64,000 nucleotides of DNA from Dictyostelium discoideum (taxonomy: Eukaryota). Below the pieces are notes generated by a model. That model was given only the letters and a program-made list of their open reading frames with translations. It searched no databases and had not been told where the DNA came from. Shown in pieces: positions 1 to 25,982 of this stretch; position 1 is the first letter of the stretch, and every line of letters begins with the position of its first letter. Both the position numbers and the translations under genes were made by a program. The stretch covers positions 6,752,001 through 6,816,000 of the forward strand of contig CM000151.3 of the NCBI GenBank assembly GCA_000004695.1. The letters run 5' to 3'.

Positions 1-7543
<7,543 letters not shown>

Positions 7544-8042
7544 ATGAAATAAAATTAAAATTAAATAAATTTTCTATTATAAAAAAAAAATATATTTTTA
7601 ATGTTTTAACAAATTTTTTCAATTTTATAAAATCACAATCTTTAAATGGACTAAAACCTTTTCAATTATGTTGTTGGGAGCTCATATCACTATTATTTTT
7701 TATTTGATTATTTTTTCAAAAGAATTTTATAATTGTTATAAATAATTTATATTTATAAAAGTCTCTTTATTAAAAATTATTTTTATTATTTTAAATATAT
7801 TAATATATTACTATTATTTAAAATAGGTTAATATTTTACCTAAATAATTATTATTTTTATTATTTTAATCCAGATTTATTTTAAGTTTTTCTGAATGTTA
7901 TGAGAAGTGGTAAAAAGAAAAAAAAATTAAATTTTGTTATTTTAATCATAAGAGATTTTTGGAAAAAAAAAAAAAAACAATGTCCTATTTTTAGTTTCTA
8001 AACACCCCTTTTTTTTTTCAACTTCACACACAATCAGTTAAT

Positions 8043-8079
<37 letters not shown>

Positions 8080-8196
8080 TAATAAAAAAAAAAATTAATT
8101 AAAAATTTTAATTATTAATTAATAATAAAAAAATAAATATATATTAATAAACAGTTTTAAAATTGTGTTTATAAATAAAATTTAAATTTTAAAAAA

Positions 8197-9306
8197 ATGA
8201 AAGTAATATTTTTATTAATATTATTAATTTTATTAAAAATTGTTAAAAGTTATGAATGTAATTGTATATTAAAAGAATATTGTAAACCATTAGAAGTTGG
8301 TGAGAGAATAGAATTTATTGGATTTTCATTTAATTCAACAGGAAATTATTTGAATTATGATTATTATTCAGTTACAACTATTGCAATTTCATATCAATCT
8401 AATTACGATATACCAGAAGAATTAGTTTGTAAATCACATGAAAATAGAGTAAGATTAGTTTGGTCTGCAATTATTTCAAATAATCAAATATCAAATGAAA
8501 CCTATAGAAATCAATTTATTGATTCCATTGTTGAGACAATTCAAAAGGAAAATATGGATGGAGTAATATATGAATTAGATAATCCAAATGATTTAACCAT
8601 TGAAAATAGTGATTACTTTACAGAAATAATTAAAAAAACATATCAAAAATTGAAATTGATCAATTGGAATTATCAAATTTCTGCAAAATTTCCATTTTCA
8701 CCAAATATTGATTTTTCGTATAATTACCCTGAAATTTCATATTACAGTGATTATTTAGTTATAATGGATTATAATATTGGTAGTAGAGTTTCAAATGATG
8801 GTAACTATTGTTTAGCAGGCTCAAATTCACCAAATCCTTTGATTGAGCAAGGTGTTCACAATTTCACATCAATGGGTATTCCTGGTGAAAGATTGGTTTT
8901 AACATATCCATGGTTTGGTTTAGATTTTATTTGTTTCAATGGTAATTTATCAAGTGTAGATTGTTTAGTTACTAAAAGTGAAAATGTTAGTTGTAATGAT
9001 ATCAATTCAATTTCAAATCAAATAAGTTATGGTGAAATATTAAAGATTCTAAATGATGATAACATTATAAATGGTGGAATAAATTGGAATTCTCAAAGTA
9101 AATCAGTATTTTTCAATTATTATGATAAACAAGGTATCCTTCACCAAATTCATTTTGATAATCCAAAATCACTCTTTATAAAAGTATTTTTAACAAAAAG
9201 ATTAAAAGCAAAAGGTATTGCTGCTCAAAGCATGGATAATTTGGATTTTAATGATTTAGTAAATTCATATAATATGTTTGATACAATGGCTTATTTTTTC
9301 ATGTAA
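8197..9306 (+). CDS. Secreted GH18-family di-N-acetylchitobiase (CTBS)-like protein
   Basis: N-terminal signal peptide (MKVIFLLILLILLKIVKS) followed by a CxC…C…P cysteine pattern, as in CTBS. GH18-like motifs MDGVIYELDNP (DxxDxDxE region), DYLVIMDYN, LVLTYPWFGLDFICFN, FFNYYD…IHFDNPKSL…RLKAKGIAAQSMD, collinear with human CTBS. Single exon, 369 aa. Confidence 0.7.
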   Translation: MKVIFLLILLILLKIVKSYECNCILKEYCKPLEVGERIEFIGFSFNSTGNYLNYDYYSVTTIAISYQSNYDIPEELVCKSHENRVRLVWSAIISNNQISNETYRNQFIDSIVETIQKENMDGVIYELDNPNDLTIENSDYFTEIIKKTYQKLKLINWNYQISAKFPFSPNIDFSYNYPEISYYSDYLVIMDYNIGSRVSNDGNYCLAGSNSPNPLIEQGVHNFTSMGIPGERLVLTYPWFGLDFICFNGNLSSVDCLVTKSENVSCNDINSISNQISYGEILKILNDDNIINGGINWNSQSKSVFFNYYDKQGILHQIHFDNPKSLFIKVFLTKRLKAKGIAAQSMDNLDFNDLVNSYNMFDTMAYFFM

Positions 9307-9549
9307 AATTTAATAAAATAAAATTAAAATTTTTTTTTTTTTTTTTTCCACATAATATATCGTTGAATAATACATTTAATTGATTATCAATTAAATTTAC
9401 AATTTAATTTATAATGGAATAAAATTTTAATTTTAATTTAATTTTTCCTGATAATTTCTATTTTTTTTTTTTTTTTTTTTTTTCAGACCCACTCTTTTTC
9501 TGAATCATTTTTTTTTTTTTTTCCATCTATACTATTTTTCAAATCAAAA

Positions 9550-10644
9550 ATGGAATTAAAATCATTTACATTTAAAGTTTCAAATGTTAAAAAATCAAAT
9601 ATTGAAATAAAAGATTTAGATATATTTGATATAGTTAATCCAAAAGAAAATGAATTTATTCCACTTGCAGAAAGAAAACAAACACTTAGCTTTAATGATA
9701 AACCTCAAGAAAAAAGGATTGTAAAATCATCATTTACAAAACAATCTAAATATATTGGAATTAATTCATTTATAGTATCTGCAATAAAAGCATATTCACA
9801 TCATCATCACTTAGTGATAAGAGTTGATGATATATGGATGGCAATATTAAATCAATTTTCAATTTATGTTAATTCAAATGCAGAGATATTAAGAGAAAAG
9901 TTTGTTGATTTCAATGGAAAGAAAACATTGACAGTGACTAGTAATGTTCCAATTTTAAGTGCACCCCTTGATCAATTAACAATTCAAATGGCTGAAAATA
10001 TAAAATCAAATATTATTGATCCATCCATTAGAGATTTGATTATTGGTGATTTTAGTACAACTACAGAAAATGATCGAGTTGTATATTCTGCATCATTAAT
10101 GTCAACTTTTAAAAGTTATTTTGATTATAGGTATATGACATTTTGTGGTTTACCAAGTGTTACATTGCAAGGATCAACTGAAGATTGGTTAAATTTAAAA
10201 CAAAGAATTGAAAGATTAATTGATTTTGAAATTGATAGTAGTAGTAAGACAGGTGAAATGAAAGAATGGGTTAGTATGTTACATCCAATAATAGATCAAT
10301 TCATTTCCACTTCAATGGGTAAACCAAATATTGAATGGTGGAATCAGATCGCTGATAAAAAACAATCATCTGGTAGTGTAAATTTAACTGGTTGGATCAC
10401 TGTATTTTGTGTATATGATAAAAATGGTAAATGGATTGGTAAAAAAGACACAACAAATTCACAATGGTTAAGAATAAACTTTGATTCCATCCCATTAGGT
10501 TATCTATCAACTCCAATAACTTTAATAGATTTTGATAGACAAGAATATAAATGTGATCTATTATCTGGTCATATGGCAATTAATATTGATTTAAATGATC
10601 AAACAATTTTAAAACCATCATTAGATTGGGTAATTATTAATTAA
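9550..10644 (+). CDS. Hypothetical protein (364 aa, no low-complexity; possibly a conserved DUF-type family)
   Basis: Clean single ORF of normal composition, with AT-rich flanks and poly-T upstream. No catalytic motif recognised. Family assignment is not possible by eye. Confidence 0.55.
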   Translation: MELKSFTFKVSNVKKSNIEIKDLDIFDIVNPKENEFIPLAERKQTLSFNDKPQEKRIVKSSFTKQSKYIGINSFIVSAIKAYSHHHHLVIRVDDIWMAILNQFSIYVNSNAEILREKFVDFNGKKTLTVTSNVPILSAPLDQLTIQMAENIKSNIIDPSIRDLIIGDFSTTTENDRVVYSASLMSTFKSYFDYRYMTFCGLPSVTLQGSTEDWLNLKQRIERLIDFEIDSSSKTGEMKEWVSMLHPIIDQFISTSMGKPNIEWWNQIADKKQSSGSVNLTGWITVFCVYDKNGKWIGKKDTTNSQWLRINFDSIPLGYLSTPITLIDFDRQEYKCDLLSGHMAINIDLNDQTILKPSLDWVIIN

Positions 10645-11232
10645 AAAAAATAAAATAAAATAAAATAAAAATTAAAATAAGTGTTCTTCCACACATTTCT
10701 GCATATTTTTCCATTTAAAAGTTTTTTTTTTTTTTTTTGATACCACAAAAATTGCAAATAAAAAAAAATATTTGGATTTAATCAGCAGTGCACTAAAAAT
10801 AAAACAAATCAAGCAGTTGGGATCCAAAAAAAAAAAAAAAAAAAAAAAAAATTTTTATTTTATTTTTTTTGATTTTTTTTTTTTTTTTCAATTTATTTTT
10901 AAATTTAATATCCTGGCCATATAAAGTTTTTTTTTTTTTTTTTTTCATTCACACACAAACCTTTTTTTTTTTTTTTTTTTTGTTTTTTCAATTATTAAAT
11001 TTATTTATTATAATAATAAAAATAAAATAAATAAAATAAAAAAAGATATATTAAAATTTCATATTTTTTTTTTTATTTTAATTTTTTAAAAAAAAAAAAA
11101 TTTATTCGGTACCACAAACAAAAAAAAAATAAAAATAAAAATAAAAATAACAAAGATAAACACCCACACACACACACAACACACTTTTATAAACATATAG
11201 ATAATTATTGAATTCAATAGTATAAATAAAAA

Positions 11233-13975
<2,743 letters not shown>

Positions 13976-14173
13976 ATTTTAAATAACAATAACCAATAAA
14001 TAAAATAAAAAAAATAAAATAAAATAAAATAAAATAAAATAAAATAAAAATAAATCATATCAAATAAAATAAACATTAAATCATATAAAAAAAAAATAAA
14101 AAATATATAAATAAAAAAATAAAATTAAAACTTTTAAACAAAAAAAAAAAAAAAATATTTGTAAAAATTTTTT

Positions 14174-14240
14174 GGATGGGAAAAAAAAAATATATAAATA
14201 ATAAAAAATGTTTATATATTTTTTTTTTCCCATCCAAAAA
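14174..14240. repeat. Near-perfect inverted repeat (hairpin): ~24-bp stem TTTTTTGGATGGGAAAAAAAAAA / TTTTTTTTTTCCCATCCAAAAAA around a palindromic ~29-nt AT loop
   Basis: Read directly in the sequence. It lies about 200 bp downstream of the ACAP stop codon. Confidence 0.6.
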
Positions 14241-14971
14241 ATATTGAAATTTTTTTTTAATTTTTTTTGTAACTCATTTTATTTTGTTTATTTTTTATTT
14301 GATGTGATTTATTTTGTTTTATTTTAATCCAAAACCTATATTAAATTATAAAAAAAAAAAATTTCCAACTTTTTTGTTCATTCACAAAAACATTCTTGAT
14401 TAAAAAATATTTTATTCTTTTTTTTTGTAAGTCTCTTAGAAAACTCCAATCGAATTTTGCTATTTTAGGGAAAGCTGAGACCATTATCAATAATCTTTTA
14501 TTGATACTTTTCAAATATTTTAAATATTGGATAGGTAATTAGTTTTCTAATATGGTTACTGCTATTCATTTTTAAAATATAACAGAAGTGGTATGCCCTA
14601 GAATGACTTGAAGAATTTATATTTTATTTATAATTTGATTTATATATTTATTTTATTTAACTTTATTAATTTAATTAATTTAATATTAATTTATTTTTTT
14701 AATTTTAATTATATATTTATAATAAAACTAACCAAAGTATCTTCTAATGAAACTAACATTTATTCTATATAAAATGAGTTGACATAATTTTCCAAAAGAG
14801 ATTAATTAAAATAATATACTAATTTGGAAAATATTTTAATTTTATATTAATTAATGAATATCTAATTTAATAATATAAATTTTCTAATAAACTATTAAAA
14901 TAGTTTAGAAATAATTATAAAAAATTATTGTAACGAACGACTACTGCTTTCGTAACAAAAATTTCCATCAA

Positions 14972-15045
14972 GCCTTAGTAGCTCAGTTGGTACGAGCGTG
15001 AGACTGAAGATCTTAAGGTCGCTGGTTCGATCCCGGCCTGAGGCA
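14972..15045 (+). tRNA. tRNA-Phe (anticodon GAA)
   Basis: GCCTTAGTAGCTCAGTTGGTACGAGCGTGAGACTGAAGATCTTAAGGTCGCTGGTTCGATCCCGGCCTGAGGCA. 7-bp acceptor stem (GCCTTAG/CTGAGGC), anticodon loop CTGAAGA, T-arm GGTTCGATCC. Close to canonical eukaryotic tRNA-Phe. Confidence 0.92.
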
Positions 15046-15148
15046 ATTTTTATGATTTTCTATTAAATTTGTTGAATTGGATAGCGCCTTCCAATAAACC
15101 CTTACATCCCATCCACCCCTAAGACACCTGTCAATAAAGAAAAAAAAA

Positions 15149-16698
15149 CCGCACCGCGATCAAGAGGATACAAGATACACGTGAAAAGTAATTCATCCTT
15201 TTCTATCCTTAATCTCGGTCAATTTTAACCAATCTTTCAAAAAAAATCACCAATCCACCACGATCTACAGATCTAACTTACCAAATCGCCGATTCAAAGG
15301 AATCCCATCGAGATGAATTCCTACGCAGACGCGGCTAAAATGGCCAACCCCTCCACCCATATGGACGAGGCATCAGAGAACTTCATTAAGGAATTCTCCA
15401 CAAAAACAGCAGAGATAAAGGAGACCTACCCCAAATTATCAATAGGCCTCAAAGACATCTCCAAATACTGCGAGACCATATTGAACATGACTGCTCTCTC
15501 AACCTACGAGAAAAACAACGGATTCTACCCAATTACACTCGAATTCCCCAAAATGGATCTCATGGGGTTAGAAGAAATGAGAAAAACACTCTCAAACTAC
15601 GATATCCCAATCGACAAGATATACATAGGCAAAGGAACTAGAAAAACGATCCACCTGATGATTAAAAACGAACAATCTCTCCTAAATATCATTAGAGATA
15701 GAAGCAAATTGGGAACCTTCATCACCTCCAGTAGAGACTACCACGTCCTCACAGGAAGAGTAAGAATTCCAAGAGAAAAGGCAGGAATAGTGGACGCCCT
15801 CATCAAAACTGCCTTTGCAGAAGAAATACCCTATGCAATATACCATACTATATACTCCACCGACCACCTCCTAGTATTCGGTCTAATAGAATGCAAAATA
15901 GGCGATCAAATGAAATCTGGCCAACACAATACAGAAATCGCCAACTTTACCATCAGAACGGCCACCAAAACCTACTCCTCACAAAAGAAAAATAAGAAAG
16001 TAGAGTCAAACAACACGGAAGAACCATTAGAAGATGAGATGACAGATGATCCTCCCAACATCCAAAACAGGATAGCAATCAAATCCTCTCAACCAAAACC
16101 ACAACAACAAACATACAACCCAGCAAACAATAAGTCTGATAAACAATCAACCCAAGAGAAAAAAGCCCAATCAAAAAAGTCCTCTCAACCTCTTCCCCCC
16201 AAAAACCAAGCAGAATCTCAATCTGTCAAACCCACCACAACCACTACCACAACATCCAACGCCATCCAAAAAGACAATGCCAACAAAACGAGCACTAACA
16301 TCCATTCATCCTCGGAAAACAGAGAGAAGACACCAAACATCCCTCCATCACATAAACGCAAGAACGAGGAAATCCACTCAAACAACGAGGTCACCCAACT
16401 CTCACCAACAATAAACAGAAGCAACCCTTACATCCCATCCACCCCTAAGACACCTGTCAATAAAGAAAGGAAAGGAATCATTGAGAGCTTCATAGAGAGT
16501 ATCTACCCTTCACCATCCAAACCGCAGCTATACGACTCCCAAGAGGAGATCGATATCATCTCATAATGGTAGTAATCAAAATCAACCAATGGAATGTCAG
16601 AGGTTGGGGCACTGACACCTCCTTCAAAAACAAAACAGACTTTATCAAATCCCAATCCCCCCCAAACTCATTGGCAATAACCATAGTCAATGAACTCA
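15149..16698 (+). mobile_element. tRNA-gene-associated non-LTR retrotransposon (TRE-like), 5' part: 5' UTR, ORF1, and the first 44 codons of ORF2 (APE-type endonuclease) truncated by an assembly gap
   Basis: Starts about 100 bp downstream of tRNA-Phe, at CCGCACCGCGATCAAGAGG preceded by an A-run. ORF1 spans 15313..16566. ORF2 starts at 16566 by ATAATGG overlap (MVVIKINQWNVRGWGTDTSFKNKTDFIKSQSPP…), the characteristic start of an L1-type AP endonuclease. Insertion downstream of a tRNA suggests a TRE3-type element. The subfamily cannot be named from the sequence alone. Confidence 0.7.
15313..16566 (+). CDS. Retrotransposon ORF1 protein (417 aa)
   Basis: Intact ORF. It has normal (non-AT-rich) codon composition, unlike host genes. 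A diverged, frameshifted inverted copy lies at 17215..18224 (minus). Confidence 0.7.
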   Translation: MNSYADAAKMANPSTHMDEASENFIKEFSTKTAEIKETYPKLSIGLKDISKYCETILNMTALSTYEKNNGFYPITLEFPKMDLMGLEEMRKTLSNYDIPIDKIYIGKGTRKTIHLMIKNEQSLLNIIRDRSKLGTFITSSRDYHVLTGRVRIPREKAGIVDALIKTAFAEEIPYAIYHTIYSTDHLLVFGLIECKIGDQMKSGQHNTEIANFTIRTATKTYSSQKKNKKVESNNTEEPLEDEMTDDPPNIQNRIAIKSSQPKPQQQTYNPANNKSDKQSTQEKKAQSKKSSQPLPPKNQAESQSVKPTTTTTTTSNAIQKDNANKTSTNIHSSSENREKTPNIPPSHKRKNEEIHSNNEVTQLSPTINRSNPYIPSTPKTPVNKERKGIIESFIESIYPSPSKPQLYDSQEEIDIIS

Positions 16699-16835
16699 NN
16701 NNNNNNNNNNNNNNNNNNNNNNNNNNNNNNNNNNNNNNNNNNNNNNNNNNNNNNNNNNNNNNNNNNNNNNNNNNNNNNNNNNNNNNNNNNNNNNNNNNCG
16801 CCAGTGTGATGGATATCTGCAGAATTCGCCCTTGC
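16699..16835. other. Assembly gap (100 N) immediately followed by 37 bp of pCR-TOPO cloning-vector polylinker (CGCCAGTGTGATGGATATCTGCAGAATTCGCCCTT)
   Basis: The N-run is 16699..16798. The string at 16799..16835 is the reverse complement of the pCR2.1/pCR4-TOPO right-flank polylinker AAGGGCGAATTCTGCAGATATCCATCACACTGGCG, which abuts TOPO-cloned inserts. Confidence 0.85.
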
Positions 16836-18418
16836 TGGTAGTGCGTGGGCGTTGAGTTCATTGACTATGGTTATTGCCAATGAGTTTGGGGGGGATTGGG
16901 ATTTGATAAAGTCTGTTTTGTTTTTGAAGGAGGTGTCAGTGCCCCAACCTCTGACATTCCATTGGTTGATTTTGATTACTACCATTATGAGATGATATCG
17001 ATCTCCTCTTGGGAGTCGTATAGCTGCGGTTTGGATGGTGAAGGGTAGATACTCTCTATGAAGCTCTCAATGATTCCTTTCCTTTCTTTATTGACAGGTG
17101 TCTTAGGGGTGGATGGGATGTAAGGGTTGCTTCTGTTTATTGTTGGTGAGAGTTGGTTGACTTCATTGTTTGAGTGGATTTCCTCGTTCTTGCGTTTATG
17201 TGATGGAGGGATGTTTAGTGTCTTCTCTCTGTTTTCCGAGGATGAATGGATGTTAGTGCTCGTTTTGTTGGCATTGTCTTTTTGGATGGCGTTGGATGTT
17301 GTGGTAGTGGTTGTGGTGGGTTTGACAGATTGAGATTCTGCTGGGTTTTTGGGGGAAGAGGTAGAGATGACTTTTTTGCTTGGGCTTTTTTCTCTTGGGT
17401 TGATTGTTTATCAGACTGATTGTTTGCTGGGTTGTTTGTTTGTTGTTGTGGTTTTGGTTGAGAGGATTTGATTGCTATCCTGTTTTGGGTGTAAGGAGGA
17501 TCTGTCATCTCATCTTCTAATGGTTCCTCCGTGTTGTTTGTCTCTACTTTCTTGTTTTTCTTTTGTGAGGAGTAGGTTTTGGTGGCCGTTCTGATGGTAA
17601 AGTTTGCGATTTCTGTAATGTGTTGGCCAGATTTCATTTGATCGCCAATTTTGCATTCTATTAGACCGAATACTATGAGGTGGTCGGTGGAGTATATAGT
17701 ATTGTATATTGCATAGGGTATTTCTTCTGCAAAGGCAGTTTTGATGAGGGCGTCCACTATTCCTGCCTTTTCTCTGGGAATTCTTACTCTTCCTGTGAGG
17801 ACGTGGAAGTCTCTACTGGAGGTGATGAAGGTTCCCAATTTGCTTCTATCTCTAATGATATTTATGAGAGATTGTTCGTTTTTGATCATCAGGTGGATCG
17901 TTTTTCTAGTTCCTTTGCCTATGTATATCTTGTCGATTGGGATATCGTAGTTTGAGAGTGTTTTTCTCATTTCTTCTAACCCCTTGAGATCCATTTTGGG
18001 GAATTCGAGTGTAATTGGGTAGAATCCGTTGTTCTTCTCGTAGCAGTCATGTTCAATATGGTCTCGCAGTATTTGGAGATGTCTTTGAGGCCTATTGATA
18101 GTTTGGGGTAGGTCTCCTTTATCTCTGCTGTTTTTGTGGAGAATTCTTTAATGAAGTTCTCCGATGCCTCGTCCATATGGGTGGAGGGGTTGGCCATTTT
18201 AGCCGCGTCTGCGTAGGAATTCATCTCGATGGGATTCCTTTGAATCGGCGATTTGGTAAGTTAGATCTGTAGATCGTGGTGGATTGGTGATTTTTTTTGA
18301 AAGATTGGTTAAAATTGACCGAGATTAAGGATAGAAAAGGATGAATTACTTTTCACGTGTATCTTGTATCCTCTTGATCGCGGTACGGTTTTTGTTTTTT
18401 TTTTTTTTTTTACCTAAA
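16836..18418 (-). mobile_element. Inverted, diverged (frameshifted) copy of the same TRE-like element 5' part (ORF2 start, ORF1 remnants, 5' UTR)
   Basis: Reverse complement of 15149..16698 at roughly 95-97% identity (for example CATCAGAG versus CATCGGAG). ORF1 is broken into track ORFs 17976..18224 and 17215..17994. Both arms stop at the same element position at the gap. Confidence 0.7.
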
Positions 18419-18442
18419 AGTGGTGTAGGAGCAATTACATAG

Positions 18443-18510
18443 TTGAAAAAAGGAATTGAAAAAAGGGATTGAAAAAAGGAATTGAAAAAAGGAATTGAAA
18501 AAAGGAATTT
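18443..18510. repeat. Tandem array of a 13-bp unit GGAATTGAAAAAA (~5-6 copies)
   Basis: Read directly in the sequence. It is flanked by T(n)ACCT(A/G)… motifs. Confidence 0.9.
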
Positions 18511-18627
18511 TTTTTTTTTTTTTTTTTTACCTGTGATCAGACCTTCAAGGAATGTCCTTGTGTCTTTTCGGCGGTGTTTGTTAAACGATTTTATTTTTAT
18601 TATTCAATTGTATTAAATTTTTTAAAC

Positions 18628-18636
<9 letters not shown>

Positions 18637-18663
<27 letters not shown>

Positions 18664-19250
18664 ACTACTACTTAAATTGGAAGAGGGTTCGGAACTACTG
18701 GGGTTTGCCAGGCTTTGTTGAATTTGTATTTGTGAAGATCTTGATTGGTGTTTTTTAGTATTGCTTCGTCGTGTTTGATTTTCTATAGTGTGATGAATTT
18801 TTCAGTTTCGATGAGATTTAGTAATTCTGTTTCTATGACCTTTTGCTCGAATTTTGGCTCTGGTTTGCTTTCATCAGTGTTGAACAATTTTTGACAGATT
18901 ATCTTCCATAATTGGTGTGCTATTATTCCTATGAGATTGGGGAAGATTCTCTCAGTTCTGTTATATTTTGATATGTCTAAGGTATCCATTGACCATCTGT
19001 GGATTTTGATGAATGATAATTTGTTAACTGTTGATATGATGGTTTTTTCAATATCTAGGATATCTCGGCATAGAGTGAAGAGGTGAGAATAAGGGTCTCT
19101 GAATAGGTGGCCACAGATCTTGCATCTGGTGTCTCTTTCGTGGTTGATACCTGGAAGTGATCTTGAGAAGAAGGTGTTTCTACCTTTTTGGTGAGAAATG
19201 CTGTTGATGTTTATGAATACTTTGGGTATTGCTGTGTTGTATCTCACCGA
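18637..19250 (-). mobile_element. 5'-truncated non-LTR retrotransposon 3' fragment: ORF2 C-terminus (CCHC-like zinc knuckle region), 3' UTR and oligo(A) tail
   Basis: Track ORF 18783..19247 (minus) reads …CKICGHLFRDPYSHLFTLCRD…, typical of an ORF2 C-terminus. On the minus strand it is followed by about 120 nt of UTR ending in A(25), seen as the T-run at 18640-18663 on plus. Confidence 0.6.
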
Positions 19251-19540
19251 TTGAAAAAAGGAATTGAAAAAAGGAATTGAAAAAAGGAATTGAAAAAAGG
19301 AATTGAAAAAAGGAATTGAAAAAAGGAATTTTTTTTTTTTTTTTACCTAAAAGCGGTATAAATTGAAAAAAGGAATTGAAAAAAGGAATTGAAAAAAGGA
19401 ATTGAAAAAAGGAATTGAAAAAAGGAATTGAAAAAAGGAATTGAAAAAAGGAATTGAAAAAAGGAATTGAAAAAAGGAATTGAAAAAAGGAATTGAAAAA
19501 AGGAATTGAAAAAAGGAATTGAAAAAAGGAATTGAAAAAA
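19251..19540. repeat. Two tandem arrays of the 13-bp unit GGAATTGAAAAAA (~6 + ~14 copies) separated by T(17)ACCTAAAAGCGGTATAA
   Basis: Read directly in the sequence. The same unit occurs at 18443..18510. The arrays abut the 3' side of tRNA-Pro. Confidence 0.9.
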
Positions 19541-19542
19541 GT

Positions 19543-19613
19543 GGGGAGATCCGAGAATCGAACTCAGGACGCTACCACCCAAAGGTAGCATTATACCACT
19601 TAACTAATCTCCC
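19543..19613 (-). tRNA. tRNA-Pro (anticodon UGG)
   Basis: The minus-strand sequence is GGGAGATTAGTTAAGTGGTATAATGCTACCTTTGGGTGGTAGCGTCCTGAGTTCGATTCTCGGATCTCCCC. Perfect 7-bp acceptor stem. Anticodon stem CTACC/GGTAG with loop TTTGGGT (anticodon TGG, G37). T-arm GAGTTCGATTCTC. Confidence 0.9.
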
Positions 19614-19685
19614 ATTTTGGAATTTTTGAATTTTAATATCTAATATTATTCCTTTAATCTTTTACGATTGTGAATTATAAAAATT

Positions 19686-19759
19686 TGCCTCAGGCCGGGA
19701 TCGAACCAGCGACCTTAAGATCTTCAGTCTCACGCTCGTACCAACTGAGCTACTAAGGC
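19686..19759 (-). tRNA. tRNA-Phe (anticodon GAA), identical to the copy at 14972..15045 but inverted
   Basis: It is the exact reverse complement of the 74-nt tRNA-Phe sequence. Confidence 0.92.
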
Positions 19760-20072
19760 TTGATGAAATTTTTATTTTTTATACTTAATAAGGGTTCGAG
19801 TAATTTTTTTAAAAATATCGAGATTCAAATGAAATTAAAGGATTTCAATAGCATCCTATTTTTTTTTTTTTTACATATAATTTCAACACAAGAGAAAATA
19901 AAAAAAATGGTTCTTTTTCCCCACAATTAAAAAATTTGATGAACATGAATAAAGGATTAGAAGAAAATTAATTTTTTAAAGCCAATTTAAATTTATTAAT
20001 AATGCATTAATAACTTTTTATTTCTCGAACCATTGATTAAGGGTAAAAAAAATTAAAAAATAAAAAAAAGTA

Positions 20073-20154: not shown

Positions 20155-25982
<5,828 letters not shown>

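Follow-up and report, generated by a model that had tools for sequence, protein, structure and literature searches.

TRE3-A, formerly known as Tdd-3, is an L1-like retrotransposon of the type that has no long terminal repeats (non-LTR retrotransposon). In the literature, TRE3 elements are described as having two open reading frames (ORFs), the second of which carries APE, reverse transcriptase (RT) and zinc finger domains, and an oligo(A) tail. They integrate 40-150 bp downstream of transfer RNA (tRNA) genes and in the same orientation as these, with a target choice through TFIIIC at the B box or an external B box (PMC5911963), and for TRE3-A a genome survey has found distances from the tRNA gene of 14-228 bp, on its downstream side (PMC5006619). 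The families differ in length and abundance, with a consensus of 5,229 bp and 67 copies (13 full-length) for TRE3-A, 5,279 bp and 43 copies (9 full-length) for TRE3-B, 4,734 bp and 29 copies (2 full-length) for TRE3-C, and a partial consensus of 1,559 bp and 11 copies (0 full-length) for TRE3-D (PMC5006619 Table 1), and sequential TRE hits on one tRNA gene yield tandems (PMC5006619 supplement). Also TRE5 and DGLT-A of Dictyostelium as well as Ty3 of yeast use RNA polymerase III (Pol III) genes as safe landing sites via a Pol III factor complex, but these elements integrate upstream of tRNA genes, TRE5 in the opposite orientation. TRE3 elements, their tRNA targeting and their tandem insertions are already well described, and the locus reported here, positions 14972-19759 in a window of 64,000 nucleotides of Dictyostelium discoideum DNA (the whole stretch that was analysed; GCA_000004695.1, contig CM000151.3, positions 6,752,001 to 6,816,000, G+C content 24%), is a textbook example of TRE3 targeting in a compact genome. 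All that it adds is one well-resolved locus where a young and probably active TRE3-A is accompanied by an old copy in decay, and for which another strain offers the empty allele.

At this locus, two TRE3-A-type arms, a left one on the plus strand (15149-16698) and a right one on the minus strand (16853-18388), give the impression of a palindrome. With a probability of about 90%, convergent D. discoideum tRNA clusters have been hit here repeatedly and independently by TRE3, and the palindromic look comes from an assembly gap in which about 8.5 kb are missing. Mutual inversion of the two TRE3-A copies then follows from the facing arrangement of the tRNA clusters; the reference assembly failed to bridge the copies, and they look palindromic because of a 100-N gap, untrimmed vector and primer sequence, and about 250 nt from a clone of another TRE3-A copy that was obtained by polymerase chain reaction (PCR). 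ARAGORN finds exactly three tRNA genes across the whole window: a tRNA-Phe(GAA) at 14972-15045 (plus), which is the target of the left-hand insertions, a tRNA-Pro(TGG) at 19543-19613 (minus), which is the proximal target of the right-hand insertions, and a tRNA-Phe(GAA) at 19686-19759 (minus), which is the inverted twin of the first with 74 of 74 nucleotides identical. Every insertion at the locus is found downstream of a tRNA gene and in that gene's orientation, the left element having the plus orientation of the first tRNA-Phe, and the right element, a 740-bp fragment and a mini-insert the minus orientation of the tRNA-Pro and the second tRNA-Phe. A sequence-only reading of the locus had proposed an inverted pair of identical tRNA-Phe genes that bracket about 4.6 kb. 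The pair is real, but its spacing of 4.6 kb is an artefact, because a 100-N placeholder replaces about 8.5 kb, and the true distance is about 13.0 kb.

This distance comes from GCA_054883475.1, a gapless assembly of a nearly identical strain, in which an exact protein match to ORF1 of the window identified two places on one 4.89-Mb contig, termed L001 and L002, the former of which is the locus itself. L001 1-11386 corresponds to window 5305-16698 with 99.88% identity and 0 mismatches in 14900-16698, L001 19898-21254 corresponds to window 16833-18189, and between these two blocks there are 8,511 bp without any N. Both arms are present in L001 with indels and mismatches identical to those of the window arms. 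The placeholder at 16699-16798, the sole run of N in the window, stands for what remains of the left element, including a transduced 3' repeat, for a plus-strand element of a second family with an ORF1 of 291 amino acids and RVT_1-bearing pieces of ORF2, and, in minus orientation, for the right element's 3' part.

As judged from alignment and ORFs, the left arm is the 5' 1.55 kb of a TRE3-A-type element that is cut by the gap. It starts 103 nt past the tRNA-Phe, close to the 100 bp that had been estimated, and comprises a 5' untranslated region (UTR) at 15149-15312, an ORF1 of 417 amino acids at 15313-16566 that is intact as had been claimed, and the start of ORF2 at 16566, which lies in the -1 frame and overlaps the ORF1 stop in the sequence TAATG; in the window, this element has all of ORF1 but only the initial 44 codons of ORF2. 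The complete left copy is found at L001 9837-15061 and measures 5,225 bp ahead of an A26 tail. Its ORF2 encodes 1,234 amino acids with an RVT_1 match at 1e-33, a CCHC finger (CPLC...H...C), and an Exo_endo_phos match that is weak and below the curated cut-off, yet spans the whole profile. Matches to ORF1 are restricted to Dictyostelium proteins, with 86-98% identity to D. discoideum entries from AX4 and from the newer assembly, and its cluster at 90% identity has 37 members, mostly on chromosome-sized contigs of D. discoideum and some from D. citrinum. The left copy shares 99.98% identity over 4.6 kb with the L002 copy, which is about 126 kb away, and it has the same composite 3' end as that copy, consisting of a tail, 64 nt, the last 180 nt of the element once more, and a second tail (L001 15062-15320; L002 14947-15211). 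In L002, this composite is enclosed by a single 11-bp target-site duplication (TSD), ATATGAAGATA, and therefore represents one retrotransposition unit, and a 3' transduction passed on by a master copy is indicated. An alternative, by which the 180-bp 3' repeat would be a separate insertion with a CATCAAC duplication, was ruled out by the position of the L002 composite inside one 11-bp duplication. From its sequence, the left copy is a recent, intact and probably active TRE3-A.

The right arm, identified in the same way, is the 5' 1.54 kb of an older, frameshifted copy. The alignment of 15149-16698 (plus) with 18388-16853 (minus) gives 1518 matches and 34 mismatches, i.e. about 97% identity, which is far beyond chance, and relative to the left arm the right arm has three deletions of 10, 3 and 1 nt, its ORF1 being broken into pieces of 82 and 259 amino acids. 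A frameshifted reverse-complement copy at 95-97% identity, as had been described from the letters, is therewith borne out, but its "head-to-head" arrangement is not, as the two elements converge and point towards each other tail-to-tail. Both arms have a G+C content of 41-42%, versus 14-24% in the flanks. In L001, left and right copies share 96.6% identity, the 5' 2.1 kb of the right copy are joined to its 3' end across an internal deletion of about 2.6 kb, and this 3' end is simple, unlike the composite of the left copy. The right element and the leader in front of it are flanked by a 12-bp TSD, GGAGCAATTACA, one copy of which is at 18428-18439 and the other at L001 18859-18870, adjoining the tail. 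Today the copy lies 1.15 kb from the tRNA-Pro, behind later insertions and a tandem array. The right arm is an older, degenerate and independently inserted TRE3-A copy.

The assignment to the TRE3 group, downstream of tRNA genes and with serial insertions, had been suggested already from the sequence and agrees with position, co-orientation and ORF plan. The distance from tRNA gene to element is 103 nt for the left copy, 47 nt for L002, 82 nt for a copy of the second family at another locus (L003), and about 100 nt for the copies in L005 and L007; the left copy, L002 and L003 are co-oriented with their tRNA genes and within the ranges of the literature. The full copy in L001 has two ORFs with APE, RT and zinc finger, no LTRs, and an oligo(A) tail. 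TSDs are 12 bp long for the right copy, 11 bp for L002 and 16 bp for L003, and 5' truncation is found at 18510-19249 and in L003. Co-orientation, short distances, duplications of 11-16 bp, 5' truncations, A tails and the APE-RT-zinc finger plan are together the signature of target-primed reverse transcription (TPRT) beside Pol III genes. None of the insertions at this locus is placed like TRE5, about 50 bp upstream and in opposite orientation, since all of them are downstream and co-oriented. The family of the arms is most likely TRE3-A, judging from the position, the length of the left copy (5,225 bp versus the 5,229-bp consensus) and the high copy number that is reflected in the 37-member ORF1 cluster. 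Features in common with TRE3-A are also the TAATG overlap with ORF2 in the -1 frame, the APE, RT and CCHC domains, and the oligo(A) tail. Nothing of substance sets the copies apart from TRE3-A; possibly particular to them are the transduced 3' extension on the left and L002 copies, and the A-runs and short TRE-derived leaders at the 5' junctions of full-length copies.

The state before the insertions can be seen in GCA_054859385.1, a more divergent D. discoideum assembly in which the flanks of the locus (L004) are 92-97% identical. There, a tRNA-Phe and a tRNA-Ile face a tRNA-Pro and a tRNA-Phe at a distance of 1.6 kb, and no TRE is present in this 1.6-kb interval between the facing clusters. 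The inverted tRNA pair therefore predates the insertions, and the arms can be explained without an inverted duplication of a tRNA gene together with its element.

The junction of the two arms in the reference is another matter than the arms themselves. The 100-N gap is followed at 16799-16833 by 35 nt of a cloning-vector polylinker that ends in a TOPO site, CGCCAGTGTGATGGATATCTGCAGAATTCGCCCTT, which we take to stem from vectors of the pCR-TOPO type. The same polylinker/TOPO string adjoins cloned inserts in vector-derived sequences (PMC7827051, PMC3161177), and it was absent from the plasmid collection that was searched. The next 19 nt, 16834-16852 (minus), lie within ORF2 and have four mismatches to each of the three genomic copies examined (left arm, right arm and L002), which is why they are regarded as the primer-derived end of a cloned PCR amplicon; four mismatches are expected from a PCR primer that was designed on an imperfect sequence. 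With these 19 nt, the right arm extends further than the left one, and the two arms do not break at exactly the same nucleotide, as had been stated. In the right arm, window and L001 differ at seven positions, all of them within 16837-17090 and none from 17091 to 18189, and at 16874, 16983 and 17090, where the right arm of L001 differs, the window carries the bases of the left type. The segment of about 16853-17100 is therefore an amplicon from a copy of the young type that was joined onto the right arm. The identity of the arms over about 300 bp and their stops at mirror positions would be explained by one primer site at which both contig ends stop. As to whether the structure is real or a cloning artefact, on which the sequence-only reading had arguments for both sides, the arms are real, since L001 reproduces both, but the junction, made up of gap, vector and primer with some 250 nt of a wrong copy, is not. 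The reference thus contains untrimmed vector and primer sequence (16799-16852), about 250 nt that stem from another copy of the repeat, and a gap in place of about 8.5 kb, and annotation, read mapping, and censuses of tRNA genes or TREs at this locus should allow for these errors.

Two other explanations of the inverted arms have to be weighed against independent insertions. The right arm could be a cloning or assembly artefact, a reverse complement of the left arm that resulted from a palindromic clone or a mis-join, with only one real element. The ends of the common sequence at the mirror positions 16698 and 16853 beside the vector would fit to this, as would the identity of the last 300 bp beside the gap between the window arms, but the arms are separated by 34 substitutions and three indels, L001 has both arms with the same differences and with further ones within the final 300 bp, and the right copy has an internal deletion as well as a leader and a 12-bp TSD of its own, so that only the last 250 nt or so, the primer and the vector are artefactual; a wholly artefactual arm is extremely improbable. 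The arms could also stem from an inverted segmental duplication of a tRNA-Phe gene in which a TRE3-A had already been inserted, followed by 3% of divergence. This would account for the identical tRNA-Phe genes and their common short flanks (94 nt with 97% identity, 14958-15051 and 19680-19773), and also in L002 a TRE3-A is bracketed by inverted tRNA genes (Arg-TCT). Outside the tRNA genes, however, the similarity ends already 14 nt upstream and 6 nt downstream, the elements lie at unequal distances and behind different leaders, the left copy is 99.98% identical to the copy about 126 kb away but only 96.6% to the right arm, and in the divergent strain the tRNA pair is inverted with no TRE between its members, which makes such a duplication very unlikely.

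Some points weigh also against repeated independent TRE3 insertions with a gap as the cause of the palindromic look. That GCA_054883475.1 is independent of the reference is judged from its gapless 4.9-Mb contig, and the comparison with L001 on the right side covers window 16833-18189, while 18190-19685 was read from the window. A TSD of the left copy was looked for and none was identified. No source names the proteins of the ORF1 cluster, all of which are annotated as "hypothetical protein", and the family letters were assigned from length, copy number and position, with TRE3-B being only 50 bp longer than TRE3-A.

The region between the tRNA-Pro and the right element is more complex than the left side. 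Directly behind the tRNA-Pro, TRF detects a tandem array of 13-bp units that begins 1 nt past the 3' end of the gene and is split into three parts, 19361-19541, 19250-19328 and 18443-18509 (all minus), with about 25 units in total and the minus-strand unit TTTTTTCAATTCC. On the minus strand, the order from the tRNA-Pro is array, mini-insert, array, fragment, array, 12-bp duplication, leader, and right TRE3-A. The mini-insert at 19329-19360 (minus) consists of TATACCGCTTTTAGGT and A14-16, and the fragment at 18510-19249 (minus), delimited by alignment with L003, is a 5'-truncated 3' portion of 740 bp of a TRE3-C-like element. It holds the C-terminus of ORF2 with a CCHC finger and a 3' UTR with a run of A27 (18637-18663), which is internal because the fragment aligns with L003 beyond it (L003 5191-5951, 95.8% identity over 761 nt); the tail is at about 18510-18528, and the true end reads CTGATCACAGGT followed by about A20. 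A 3' element fragment downstream of the tRNA-Pro had been noticed before, and its presence was right, but not the position of its poly(A) nor the attribution to the same family: the C-terminus of its ORF2 is only 39% identical in amino acids to that of the arms, and the fragment therefore belongs to a different TRE family.

This second family includes the plus-strand element in the gap, as L003 3635-4818 and L001 17670-18852 are 99.5% identical. In L003, a copy that is 5'-truncated and enclosed by a 16-bp TSD is situated 82 nt downstream from a further tRNA-Phe gene, past an external B box, GGTTCGATTC. A length of about 4,645 bp can be rebuilt from L001 15321-18852 and L003 4819-5931. With about 4.65 kb versus the 4,734-bp consensus, and with its downstream and co-oriented position, CCHC finger, 3' UTR and tail, the family resembles TRE3-C and is closest to it, an assignment made by length only, for which TRE3-D, known as a partial consensus of 1.56 kb, would be the alternative. 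A classification of the fragment as TRE3-D, which short protein matches had suggested, was dropped, as the family in L001 and L003 is about 4.65 kb long and has an ORF1 and an RT-bearing ORF2. Database matches to the second family are short ORF fragments only, which is consistent with few intact copies.

The 13-bp array was not seen elsewhere in the window, and no such array was found on searching L001-L003. That it might be part of the 3' UTR of an element was ruled out, since the 12-bp duplication marks it as target DNA and L001-L003 have no array. Behind the orthologous tRNA-Pro of the divergent strain there is a T-run and, about 30 nt downstream, a single GTTCAATTCC; by its sequence the 13-bp unit looks like the terminator T-run of the tRNA-Pro together with the core of an external B box, multiplied about 25 times. 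The point of entry into the array unit, GGAATT^G on the plus strand, is the same for the fragment and the mini-insert, and as these are two independent insertions at one unit position, the array may be a landing pad. The array itself might have grown from TSD-sized duplications left repeatedly by TPRT events that aborted.

Also the 5' ends of the TRE3-A copies have a peculiar structure. In front of the left element, and behind 51 nt of native downstream flank of the tRNA-Phe (15046-15096, plus), a repeat search identified a TRE3-A-derived leader at 15097-15148 (plus), in which the 46 nt at 15097-15142 match ORF1 16423-16468 without exception and close with AATAAAGAAA, before an A-run leads directly up to the 5' end of the element; a segment with 44 bp shared with ORF1 and an A-run had been recognised there already. 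The leader in front of the right element (18389-18427, minus) reads TACACCACTTTTAGGT + A17 + C + A5. Within the window there are two occurrences of the CTTTTAGGT-poly(A) motif, and in the right leader it is the 16-nt CTTTTAGGT end with A17. The 5' ends of all five full-length TRE3-A copies (left, right, L005, L006 and L007) begin with A5-9 and then CCG(Y)ACCGCG; the junctions, A5-9 + CCG(Y)ACCGCGATC, are at 15139-15151 and 18386-18394 in the window, at about 2330-2345 in L005, and at about 2155-2170 in L006 and L007. TRE-derived leaders are present at three of these five ends, namely in the left arm, the right arm and L005, where the leader is a piece of 3' UTR that ends at an alternative poly(A) site. 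As a separate observation, the 16-nt pieces TAYACCRCTTTTAGGT at 18412-18427 and 19345-19360 are each followed by poly(A) and look like the extreme 3' end of some element or RNA, which neither of the two families characterised here has as its end.

The leaders could be separate, extremely 5'-truncated insertions, in the A-runs of which the full-length elements landed later. Repeated targeting of one tRNA gene is documented, and the mini-insert at 19329-19360 is a stand-alone insertion of 16 nt plus poly(A) of the like kind, but the 12-bp duplication on the right side encloses leader and element as one unit, and A5-9 at five of five ends with leaders at three of five fits to an annealing of the cDNA T-run to A-rich RNA, so that the chances of such serial insertions are put at slightly below even. 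Equally well fits an addition of the leaders during insertion of the element itself, if the reverse transcriptase switched templates: the TRE3-A RNA would start with an A-run, and the resulting T-run of the cDNA would pair with poly(A) or A-rich parts of other TRE RNAs. Both models predict the same final sequence. It is unlikely that both things hold jointly, i.e. that the array is a multiplied TRE3 landing pad and that template switching at the TRE3-A 5' end makes the leaders. For the mechanism of TRE3 target choice, the 5' leaders and the external-B-box array would have a modest interest if they are general.

For the preferred reading, by which TRE3 hit the convergent clusters repeatedly and independently, we infer an order of events in which each insertion would have taken place by TPRT shortly downstream of a tRNA gene and in the orientation of that gene, with later insertions pushing earlier ones outward. 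The starting point would be the ancestral pair of convergent tRNA clusters, behind the plus-strand tRNA-Phe of which a TRE3-C-type element would have inserted, followed by the older TRE3-A behind the minus-strand tRNA-Pro. The 740-bp fragment and the mini-insert would then have entered the 13-bp array, and the most recent event would be the insertion of the intact TRE3-A 103 nt behind the tRNA-Phe.

The setting of an inverted tRNA pair seems to recur. At L002 (9738-16574), on the same chromosome, a TRE3-A lies between an inverted pair of tRNA genes with identical anticodon (Arg-TCT), together with a tRNA-Leu(TAA). In the divergent strain, L004 contains an extra tRNA-Ile(AAT) at 14034-14106 that is absent at the AX4-type locus, and about 110 nt downstream of it, at 13490-13926 (minus), there is an intron-less rpl27-like copy with an in-frame stop, which may be a processed pseudogene placed by the TRE3 machinery. 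A degenerate tRNA-Pro-like remnant is found at about 12637-12725 of L004. The right flank of the locus in the window is occupied by a gene at 20155-25982 (minus) for a protein of about 1,888 amino acids, with protein-kinase and HECT domains in its C-terminal part. The gene is split into two annotated models in the divergent strain, and its single predicted intron, 25344-25507, is nearly entirely an (ATT)n run.

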